IMG/VR virus record: IMGVR_UViG_3300030376_003949
Location: 1 to 57,099 of that record
Reading direction: 5' to 3' (one strand)
Origin: a virus
Lineage: Duplodnaviria > Caudoviricetes
DNA length: 57,099 nucleotides
This document shows positions 26,892-27,632 of the stretch, in pieces; the first letter of the stretch is position 1, and the number at the start of each line of letters is the position of its first letter. The position numbers were made by a program, and so were the translations under genes. The notes under the pieces are model-generated. The model was not told the origin of the DNA and did not search any database. It saw nothing but the letters and a program-made list of their open reading frames with translations.

Positions 26892-27032
26892 TTAGCTTTT
26901 GGAAGCGAACTTACGTTGAACTTTGATCCCACGATACATTAGATCATGGTTTCTCTGTTGTGCTTCGTGCTGTACCATGTTACGGTACTCTTCAGAGTCG
27001 TACTTGACTCCACGATAAGTGACTTGTGTCAT
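26892..27032 (-). CDS. DUF4278-type small protein (46 aa)
   Basis: Hand translation MTQVTYRGVKYDSEEYRNMVQHEAQQRNHDLMYRGIKVQRKFASKS; two YRG motifs. Confidence 0.8.
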   Translation of the reverse strand: MTQVTYRGVKYDSEEYRNMVQHEAQQRNHDLMYRGIKVQRKFASKS

Positions 27033-27064
27033 TTGATTTACCTTAGGTAGGGTGGATTAGACCC

Positions 27065-27260
27065 CGTTCCTTCAGTCTTCTTTTGCGTCCCATGTACACT
27101 CTAGTCCTACTGCTTCCGTAAGATCTATTTTATAGATCTCCACTATCTCTTGTTTAGTTTGAGCGTTAACAGTATTGTTAACATTTACCCGATCTATCAT
27201 CTCTGATACATCAGCACAAGTCATTGCAGCAGCTAGTAAAAATTCCATGGGATGAACGAT
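27065..27260 (-). ncRNA. Glutamine-riboswitch-like aptamer 2 (split; ORF inserted in the P2 loop)
   Basis: ATCGTTCA-TCCCATG [151 nt] CATGGGA-CGCAAAAGAAGACTGAAG-GAACG. Confidence 0.7.
27072..27248 (-). CDS. 58-aa ORF embedded in aptamer 2
   Basis: MEFLLAAAMTCADVSEMIDRVNVNNTVNAQTKQEIVEIYKIDLTEAVGLECTWDAKED. Confidence 0.7.
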   Translation of the reverse strand: MEFLLAAAMTCADVSEMIDRVNVNNTVNAQTKQEIVEIYKIDLTEAVGLECTWDAKED

Positions 27261-27262
27261 TC

Positions 27263-27303
27263 CGTTCCGAGTCGGCTTACTTGCGTCCCTTTTGGGATGA
27301 ACG
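27263..27303 (-). ncRNA. Glutamine-riboswitch-like aptamer 1 (glnA/Downstream-peptide family)
   Basis: CGTTC-A-TCCC-AAAA-GGGA-CGCAAGTAAGCCGACTCG-GAACG. Confidence 0.75.
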
Positions 27304-27306
27304 TAT

Positions 27307-27339
27307 TGTCATGATAGCATGACATAATTATTTAGTCAA
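27307..27339 (-). promoter_or_regulatory. Composite early/late promoter of the riboswitch leader
   Basis: TTGACT-N17-TATCAT overlapping CTAAATA; inverted repeat TGTCATG-N4-CATGACA across the -10. Confidence 0.65.
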
Positions 27340-27632
27340 GTAATTGAATAAAATGTGTACTTGAGGAACAGTTCTTCCCCTTTCTTGATTGGTTTAATAG
27401 TCTTCATGTGATAGATCTTACCCCAATCCTCTTGCTCGTACCATTTGACACAGTTAGGATCTTCACTATGATTTACGAATCCACCTAAAGGAGTTCTCAT
27501 AATATCTTCATCCACCACAACGTGAGAGATACCAAGATACATCATAGAATCGATATCTTCCTTAGCAAATAGTCCCTGTCCTGCGACAGGACTATCTTTA
27601 ACATGTAATTCTGGTGGAAGTGCTACGTACAT
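27336..27632 (-). CDS. Minimal SET-domain protein (putative lysine methyltransferase)
   Basis: S.V.G.GLFA, F.NHS..PN, I..GEEL..Y. Confidence 0.85.
   Translation of the reverse strand: MYVALPPELHVKDSPVAGQGLFAKEDIDSMMYLGISHVVVDEDIMRTPLGGFVNHSEDPNCVKWYEQEDWGKIYHMKTIKPIKKGEELFLKYTFYSIT

Follow-up and report, generated by a model that had tools for sequence, protein, structure and literature searches.

A conserved small gene nested in the second aptamer of a tandem glutamine riboswitch-like leader of T4-like cyanophages

Two families of glutamine riboswitch are known from cyanobacteria, the glnA RNA (type 1; Rfam family Glutamine, RF01739) and the Downstream-peptide motif (type 2; Glutamine-II, RF01704), and Ames and Breaker reportedly showed glutamine binding in 2011. 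Glutamine riboswitches work as ON switches in the control of DUF4278/IF17 genes (PMC6212724). In PMC6698751 (Huang et al. 2019), ligand binding is described as stabilizing a helix with GGAACG, probably in competition with a structure occluding the ribosome-binding site (RBS), and the two RNAs obtained by splitting the glutamine-II aptamer come together with glutamine. Weinberg 2010 (PMC2864571) describes glnA RNAs in tandem and, downstream of the Downstream-peptide motif, short open reading frames (ORFs). Glutamine riboswitches in T4-like cyanophages are mentioned in PMC9964418 and PMC9602691, and a 2017 survey counts only two glutamine aptamers in cyanophage genomes (PMC5473149). Here we describe a riboswitch unit on the virus record IMGVR_UViG_3300030376_003949, in which a complete protein gene lies inside the second of two tandem glutamine-type aptamers. 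The record (57,099 bases, which together are called the window) amounts to about one third of a genome by the CheckV estimate, and its nearest named relatives by blastn are T4-like cyanomyoviruses of Prochlorococcus and Synechococcus.

The unit, all elements of which are on the minus strand, shares with the cyanobacterial tandem riboswitches of both families the core CGUUCA, a C-rich/G-rich hairpin, CGCAA... and GGAACG. The tandem arrangement and the downstream DUF4278/IF17 family are also the same, and ON behavior would be expected here from PMC6212724. Unlike in the cyanobacterial riboswitches, the loop of one phage aptamer, or in relatives of both, is a complete ORF with its start and stop codons in the aptamer, and standard models miss it. 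A pattern scan found this gene-bearing form only in cyanomyophage DNA (three metagenome-assembled-genome contigs, two of them verified as phage). The split glutamine-II aptamer of PMC6698751 likewise assembles from two pieces in a glutamine-dependent manner, as the phage aptamer would; it is a two-molecule laboratory construct, whereas here about 150 nt of coding RNA join the halves naturally in one transcript.

Other structured RNAs contain or overlap ORFs. Group I introns carry homing-endonuclease ORFs in peripheral loops, which are selfish mobility genes in a ribozyme. As in these introns, the ORF lies inside a loop of a structured RNA, so translation and folding can interfere; unlike in them, the RNA that harbors the ORF senses a metabolite, its conserved core includes the start and stop codons, and there is no evident mobility function. 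In leader-peptide attenuators and in the dual-function RNAs SgrS/SgrT and RNAIII/hld, a short ORF overlaps a regulatory RNA structure. With these the phage unit shares the influence of ribosome position on RNA folding. They have no ligand aptamer around the ORF, and the nested phage protein is a conserved family of 49-66 residues, not a sensor peptide. The features of the unit are as follows.

27303-27263, minus strand: aptamer 1 (copy 1) with a short P2 loop, CGTTCA-TCCC-AAAA-GGGA-CGCAAGTAAGCCGACTCGGAACG.
27262-27259, minus strand: inter-aptamer linker of 4 nt.
27254..27267, minus strand: predicted inter-aptamer hairpin, part of the minimum-free-energy fold, with a putative function.
27258-27065, minus strand: aptamer 2 (copy 2), whole, CGTTCA-TCCCATG ... 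CATGGGA-CGCAAAAGAAGACTGAAGGAACG.
27246..27258, minus strand: 5' half of aptamer 2, consisting of P1 5' strand CGUUC, A, and P2 5' strand UCCCAUG with the ORF start codon.
27248-27072, minus strand: embedded ORF of 58 amino acids (aa), which fills the P2 loop of aptamer 2; phrog_504.
27065..27094, minus strand: 3' half of aptamer 2, consisting of P2 3' strand CAUGGGA, CGCAAAAGAAGACUGAAG, and P1 3' strand GAACG.
27040..27076, minus strand: predicted expression-platform hairpin, from a local fold and a prediction only.
27032-26892, minus strand: DUF4278 ORF of 46 aa, IF17-like, with two YRG motifs; PF14105, 28.5 bits; phrog_5049, E 5.5e-21.

An earlier note on this DNA had described, behind a promoter, two aptamer copies, the first with a 4-nt P2 loop and the second with the stem TCCCATG/CATGGGA around 151 nt, a 58-aa ORF running from the ATG of this stem into the 3' half of the aptamer, and, downstream, a DUF4278 peptide, a terminator and talC. 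All of these elements were found. As RNA, aptamer 1 comprises P1 CGUUC/GAACG and P2 UCCC-AAAA-GGGA, followed by CGCAAGUAAGCCGACUCGG. The P2 stem of copy 2 is formed by the 7 bp UCCCAUG/CAUGGGA (27252-27246 with 27094-27088). The last codons of the embedded ORF, TGG GAC GCA AAA GAA GAC TGA (TWDAKED-stop), are at the same time the 3' half of the aptamer, and the TGA (27074-27072) directly precedes AGGAACG, that is, the P1 3' strand.

We searched all 57,099 bases on both strands, with filters off, using a leave-out covariance model (R1) whose training set, second aptamers of other phages with the window and its close relatives excluded, comprised 20 with a short and 11 with a long loop. R1 found copy 2 at 27260-27063 with 55.7 bits (E 1.1e-12), comprising all nine model pairs and placing the insertion in the P2 loop. 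Copy 1 scored 35.5 bits and the next-best match in the window 13.7 bits. Because the insertion penalty of R1 was partly learned from long-loop members, the score of copy 2 means that its halves match, not that long loops are ordinary. In both copies, the P1 helix CGUUC/GAACG encloses the aptamer, and the P2 hairpin follows CGUUCA immediately and precedes CGCAA/CGGAA. The Rfam Glutamine alignment of copy 1 covers P3 with gaps, and by eye, the window would permit a type-2-like helix of 4 bp, AGAC/GUCU. Both halves of copy 2 are invariant at the ligand-pocket positions, while the identities of the ORFs between them go down to about 16-30%. Furthermore, cyanophage P-TIM68 has at the same position a plain short-loop aptamer, which reaches 35.4 bits with Rfam Glutamine (gathering cut-off, 35 bits), and scores of 35.3-41.4 bits were obtained at the short-loop second aptamer in 12 of 18 further loci, these being training loci. 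We conclude from architecture and orthology that the element is a glutamine riboswitch, though the window copies stay under the Rfam cut-offs.

For comparative analysis, two sets of IMG/VR loci were collected: 34 loci matching the window ORF, and at least 118 loci matching an aptamer-junction pattern. The junction DNA pattern was used since an alignment of the diverse nested ORFs had no sufficiently conserved stretch. Among the matches listed, to which the counts of second aptamers, P2 pairs, nested ORFs and layouts below refer, 33 lack the 3' half of an aptamer and probably arose by chance; the other 132 yielded 114 distinct second aptamers, of which 87 have more than 100 nt between the anchors (long loop). 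The 5' anchor was defined by the aptamer junction only and the 3' anchor by CGCA...GAACG only, so P2 pairing was not used for selection. In the 87 long-loop sequences, the first five P2 pairs were compared with shuffled partners:

P2 pair 1: 99% standard pairs; shuffled-partner mean 98%, maximum 99%.
P2 pair 2: 99% standard pairs; shuffled-partner mean 98%, maximum 99%.
P2 pair 3: 99% standard pairs; shuffled-partner mean 90%, maximum 93%.
P2 pair 4: 98% standard pairs; shuffled-partner mean 73%, maximum 82%.
P2 pair 5: 92% standard pairs; shuffled-partner mean 62%, maximum 74%.

Pair 3 was made up of C-G (64), U-G (12) and U-A (10), and pair 4 of C-G (44), U-G (22), A-U (10) and U-A (9). When pairs were counted on a MAFFT alignment of 71 representatives, 98.8% of the P2 cells were paired, and partners slid out of register paired in 33-63%. 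The covariation check of the long-range P2 proposed in the earlier note gave 25 double-change cells versus 6.5 in shuffles, and 0 of 500 shuffles were as high. By this comparative evidence, the long-range P2 covaries across 130-200 nt.

The nested ORF was conserved along with the stem. An ATG-initiated ORF spanning the loop was present in 85 of the 87 distinct long-loop second aptamers; the remaining two were a chance match and a variant without an intact frame. Counted from the C of CGUUCA, the ATG starts at a distance of 9-11 nt in 83 of the 85 ORFs. The stop codon, a UGA or UAA immediately preceding AGGAACG in 83/85, has its end at one of two distances from the C of CGCA, 13 nt (32 cases) or 16 nt (51 cases). 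Summed over the 85 ORFs, the reading frame contained no stops and the other two frames 437 and 408. In ORF interiors, from which the first two and last six codons were left out, pN/pS was 0.28-0.60 across six length classes, and differences were mostly at third positions. Conservation in homologs, as expected in the earlier note, was thus borne out, and we conclude from these sequence patterns that the nested ORF is a conserved gene under purifying selection.

The window protein matched phrog_504 with an E value of 2.8e-17 (residues 2-57 on profile positions 3-53 of 53). In 58 diverse members, cysteines C11 and C51 were invariant, and D54, A55 and D58 were at least 90% conserved. No Pfam match was found for the window protein and only weak, scattered ones for the 58 relatives; the best match among Protein Data Bank (PDB) sequences had an E value of 0.22, and the protein atlas contained unnamed clusters only. 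Divergent, longer nested ORFs of 61-68 aa, with both cysteines kept, were observed in five loci. They have an N-terminal stretch resembling a signal peptide, for example, a leucine run ending in A-G. Judged by such stretches, the family may be secreted or membrane associated.

In two studies, RNA libraries yielded contigs that cover the unit, one of which is near-identical, 199 nt long and spans 27080-27278. They are weak evidence of expression, since they give no strand, ends, starts or level and DNA carry-over is possible. Some metatranscriptome contigs join 27091-27093 to 27236-27261, with few letters between the halves of aptamer 2. Splicing or an intron-like excision of the ORF from the RNA was considered for these contigs and rejected: they represent short-loop relatives that inhabit the same waters and also exist as DNA.

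The C-terminal residues reveal how the protein and the RNA share the same letters. The D-A ending is fixed because it is encoded by GACGCA, which is the aptamer core. The residue before it is W where the P2 stem is CCCA/UGGG, and K, I, E or R with the stems CCUUA/UAAGG, UCUAU/AUAGA, CCUCA/UGAGG and CCCU/AGGG. The W thus changes together with the P2 5' strand, and RNA pairing is therefore kept at an amino acid cost. Of the C-x-W-D-A ending for which the earlier note expected conservation, the invariant C51 and the D-A held, and the W did not. The mean probability of the first four P2 pairs was 0.746 for the native sequences and 0.283 with shuffled ORF interiors, and the native value was higher in 68 of 71 sequences. 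The Wilcoxon p value of about 1e-12 is generous, the sequences being related and the interior shuffle preserving base composition only. On these fold calculations, the coding sequence also seems to be shaped to let the aptamer halves meet. We favor, with moderate confidence that applies to the whole explanation including the mechanism proposed below, the reading that selection maintains the aptamer and the protein together.

By blastn of the region, 234 phage records showed similarity, all of them labeled Synechococcus, Prochlorococcus, Cyanophage or Marine. Thirteen named cyanomyovirus isolates of different genera were taken from them. Tandem aptamers were present in 13/13, with an ORF in the loop of copy 2 in 12/13 and an ORF in copy 1 as well in three (P-RSM4, P-SSM4 and P-HM1); P-TIM68 has an ORF in neither aptamer. 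The depositors annotated the nested ORFs as hypothetical proteins, with the notes T4-GC 430 or 541 for second-aptamer ORFs and T4-GC 429 for first-aptamer ORFs. In the pattern-derived loci, distinct arrays with at least three P2 pairs comprised the layouts short-long (35), short-short (12), long-long (10) and long-short (7), and single aptamers with a long (10) or a short loop (4). The short-short count is too low, as at least eight arrays with a 9-bp P2 and a loop reading CGCA were misanchored by the search expression. Short-loop members have 4-47 nt of P2 loop between the anchors.

First-aptamer ORFs start at offset 10-13; their stop codon is either within the 3' strand of P2 or the UAA of CGCAAGUAA. 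They form the family phrog_6471, which is homologous to the second-aptamer family (hhalign probability, 97.2%; E 2.8e-11) and aligns with it cysteine to cysteine. Therefore, either the unit of aptamer and gene was duplicated or the same gene family was placed in aptamer loops repeatedly. In one locus (L044:32-73), the tandem unit is preceded at about 450 nt by a third glutamine-type aptamer, which has a DUF4278 ORF of its own; such units therefore occur more than once in some phages. When one genome each from 185,579 prokaryote species was scanned with the exact pattern, three matches were obtained, all in metagenome-assembled-genome contigs, and none in cyanobacterial genomes, the pattern being narrow and other cellular forms possible. 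Two of the matching contigs, filed as Verrucomicrobiales and Euryarchaeota, are 77-80% identical to Synechococcus myoviruses (S-SM2 and ACG-2014h) and therefore appear to be mis-binned phage DNA.

How the nested gene and the switch might work together was considered from the predicted structures. The full fold of the window leader had -76.9 kcal/mol (z -3.1), and the minimum-free-energy structure included the long-range P2, an inter-aptamer hairpin and a platform hairpin. The predicted inter-aptamer hairpin (-5.2 kcal/mol alone) consists of the P1 3' strand GAACG of aptamer 1 and the P1 5' strand CGUUC of aptamer 2 with the loop GAAU, and is located 5-19 nt ahead of the nested AUG. In 14 of 14 BLAST-derived sequences, the linker permits it with a loop of 3-5 nt. 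The predicted platform hairpin (ACU..AGG..GGGGU with ACCCU..CCU..GGU; -10.9 kcal/mol as a local fold) would join the region of the nested stop codon to the DUF4278 RBS AAGGU (27044-27040). In most relatives, a helix can be drawn between CU(G/A)AAG, which contains the stop codon, and CUU(C/U)AG, at the edge of the RBS AGGAG; in it, C stands only opposite G (13/13), and there is one covarying pair.

The DUF4278 ORF itself scored 28.5 bits with Pfam PF14105 (cut-off, 25.3) and starts 32 nt past the end of copy 2. A downstream ORF was found in 93 of 106 distinct aptamer-to-ATG segments of related loci, and 14 of these 93 have fewer than two YRG motifs. In six loci, an extra segment of about 25 nt (AACGGAUC...stem-GAAA/GCAA-stem...AAGGU) was observed between the second aptamer and the RBS, lengthening the spacer from about 33 to 56-64 nt. 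Its sequence suggests an added hairpin whose loop is of the GNRA type.

A ribosome translating the nested ORF and a folded aptamer 2 are mutually exclusive, because the ORF starts within P2 and its stop codon is immediately adjacent to the P1 3' strand; this exclusion, already proposed in the earlier note, follows from the codon positions. We propose the following mechanism. Without glutamine, the P1 3' strand of aptamer 1 would pair with the P1 5' strand of aptamer 2, disabling both aptamers; the nested AUG would have the inter-aptamer hairpin in front of it, the DUF4278 RBS would be paired with the 3' half of aptamer 2, and both start sites would be hindered. Glutamine on aptamer 1 would free the leader of the nested ORF. 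Aptamer 2 would close over the approximately 150 nt only on ribosome-free RNA, and its closure with glutamine would release the DUF4278 RBS, which would make it an ON switch like the glutamine riboswitches of cells. A ribosome terminating on the nested ORF, with its footprint over the P1 3' strand, would open the same platform hairpin. By these steps, glutamine and the passage of ribosomes through the sensor would jointly determine the output. The modeled inter-aptamer and platform hairpins point towards glutamine co-activation of both ORFs, or translational coupling, rather than strict reciprocity. An aptamer built around a translated ORF, with this proposed ON-switch mechanism, is our best explanation of the locus as a whole, and we consider it somewhat better than an even bet.

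Several results weigh against this explanation. The Rfam models named in the earlier note did not support it on the native sequence: copy 1 reached 32.0 bits with Glutamine (E 6.8e-5, seen at a lenient threshold only) and 29.3 bits with Glutamine-II (cut-off, 33 bits), and copy 2 had no match to either at E <= 10. The miss of copy 2 arises because its 151-nt insertion is heavily penalized. Copy 2 is without an obvious P3, and the Rfam alignment of the short-loop orthologue skips the P3 section of the model. P1 was invariant in all collected sequences and is uninformative on covariation, being required by the search anchors. P2 pairs 6-7, which would bury the whole AUG, were no better than shuffled partners (60 and 59% versus 51 and 60%), and whole-AUG burial by pairs 6-8 was rejected on this ground. 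The shuffle tests overstate independence because the sequences are related. The predicted inter-aptamer hairpin is an automatic consequence of two identical P1 stems adjoining, so its existence is no proof of use. RNAalifold found no conserved pairs in 52 expression platforms. For the stop codon-RBS helix of the relatives, a shift by one column gave pairing just as good (89.8%), and no more than two of its six pairs fit the window; on these two grounds, the helix was demoted to a lead.

The earlier note had gone further and proposed a translation-coupled reciprocal switch that would report host nitrogen status and control two microproteins. In its strict form, glutamine would fold aptamer 2 and bury the AUG, turning the nested ORF off and DUF4278 on, and the absence of glutamine would do the reverse. 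For most members, the first base of the AUG is P2 position 5, and pair 5 is standard in 92%; the 7-bp P2 of the window covers the whole AUG, and an ON switch for the downstream DUF4278 gene is what PMC6212724 would lead one to expect. However, the pairs over the U and G of the AUG are those which did not exceed shuffled partners, and some 150 nt are transcribed between the AUG and the P2 3' strand, which allows ribosomes to load before that strand exists. Moreover, aptamer 1, 13 nt upstream of the AUG, is at the normal ON-switch position for the nested ORF, and coupling is what one would predict if a terminating ribosome opens the platform hairpin. We regard strict reciprocity as unlikely.

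To a similar degree improbable, in our judgment, is a passenger gene: the P2 loop would tolerate insertions, and a small gene would have settled there in a packed genome and be expressed independently of an ordinary tandem switch that works on ribosome-free RNA. The freely varying loop length of short-loop members, the swapping of short- and long-loop forms at the same position in related phages, and the splitting tolerated by the glutamine-II aptamer (PMC6698751) all fit such tolerance. It accounts poorly for start and stop codons at fixed places of the aptamer core in 83/85 ORFs, with offset 10 recurring in first-aptamer ORFs, for only one protein superfamily being found in both aptamers, and for coding interiors which favor P2 closure far above shuffled ones. 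These points argue for co-adaptation over mere tolerance and are no proof of a regulatory link.

That copy 2 no longer binds glutamine, with its halves kept as a translation leader and stop context or as recombination boundaries for cassette swaps, would fit the missing Rfam report, the lack of a clear P3 hairpin, four layouts that look like recombination between repeated aptamer halves, and the paralogous ORFs of the two aptamers, but it is very improbable in view of compensatory changes that keep P2 across 130-200 nt even at the price of altering the W, short-loop orthologues that reach the Rfam cut-off, and ligand-pocket positions invariant in both halves despite the divergence of the ORFs.

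The unit is flanked by the following elements.

27336-27632, minus strand: gene for a SET-domain protein of 98 aa, directly upstream; PF00856, E 1.1e-10; phrog_28741.
27339-27311, minus strand: sigma-70-type promoter, TTGACT, 17-nt spacer, TG-TATCAT; 10/12 consensus matches, TG present.
26866-26846, minus strand: intrinsic terminator with a 9-bp stem and a 3-nt loop, then a T run.
26804-26151, minus strand: talC.

The -35 box of the promoter overlaps the stop codon of the SET-domain gene, and the transcription start predicted from promoter spacing (about 27304) falls right at the first aptamer. With the same moderate confidence as for the joint explanation, the locus of this T4-like cyanophage is read as an early transcription unit that is complete in itself at about 470 nt, with tandem aptamers before an IF17-like DUF4278 gene. 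A palindrome (27307-27324, TGTCATG-CTAT-CATGACA) was observed just 5' of aptamer 1, overlapping the -10 box. Equivalent palindromes are present in many loci, for example, GGTC-TATAAT-GACC in one of them, the structure being kept while the sequence varies between phages. They presumably resemble the promoter-stem-loop cassettes of T4-type phages. The palindrome may act in DNA or in RNA, depending on the transcription start, which is itself only predicted. The sole Rfam match above cut-off in the window was a full-length manA RNA (RF01745; 19049-19242, minus strand; 176 bits, E 2.4e-47), which is unrelated to the glutamine aptamers. The relatives P-RSM6, P-TIM40 and P-SSM4 have a manA RNA close to the riboswitch unit, at a distance of no more than about 1 kb.

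Our literature searches returned no description of an ORF inside a glutamine aptamer, an earlier mention of long insertions in Ames and Breaker 2011 being possible. The nested, conserved and co-adapted gene appears to be new; the glutamine riboswitch itself and its tandem form were already known. Aptamers are usually seen as compact noncoding units of 5' leaders, and here a whole protein gene lies inside one, in many abundant T4-like phages of Prochlorococcus and Synechococcus. Such aptamers escape searches restricted to intergenic regions and covariance models that penalize insertions in the normal way; the survey count of two stands against 234 phage records with similar DNA. If the reading is true, riboswitch use by phages is therefore undercounted. 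The four natural layouts offer a test system for translation versus ligand-dependent folding on one molecule. More tentatively, and with less confidence than in the explanation of the locus itself, the unit may represent a riboswitch class with an aptamer built around a translated gene. In such a class, ribosome traffic would be a second input, glutamine and translation status would be integrated before a gene resembling a regulator of glutamine synthetase is released, and the module would be duplicated and shuffled among cyanophages of the ocean and systematically missed by standard model searches. The unit would link the sensing of glutamine, the central nitrogen signal, by the phage to two microproteins, one of them related to the glutamine synthetase inactivating factor IF17.

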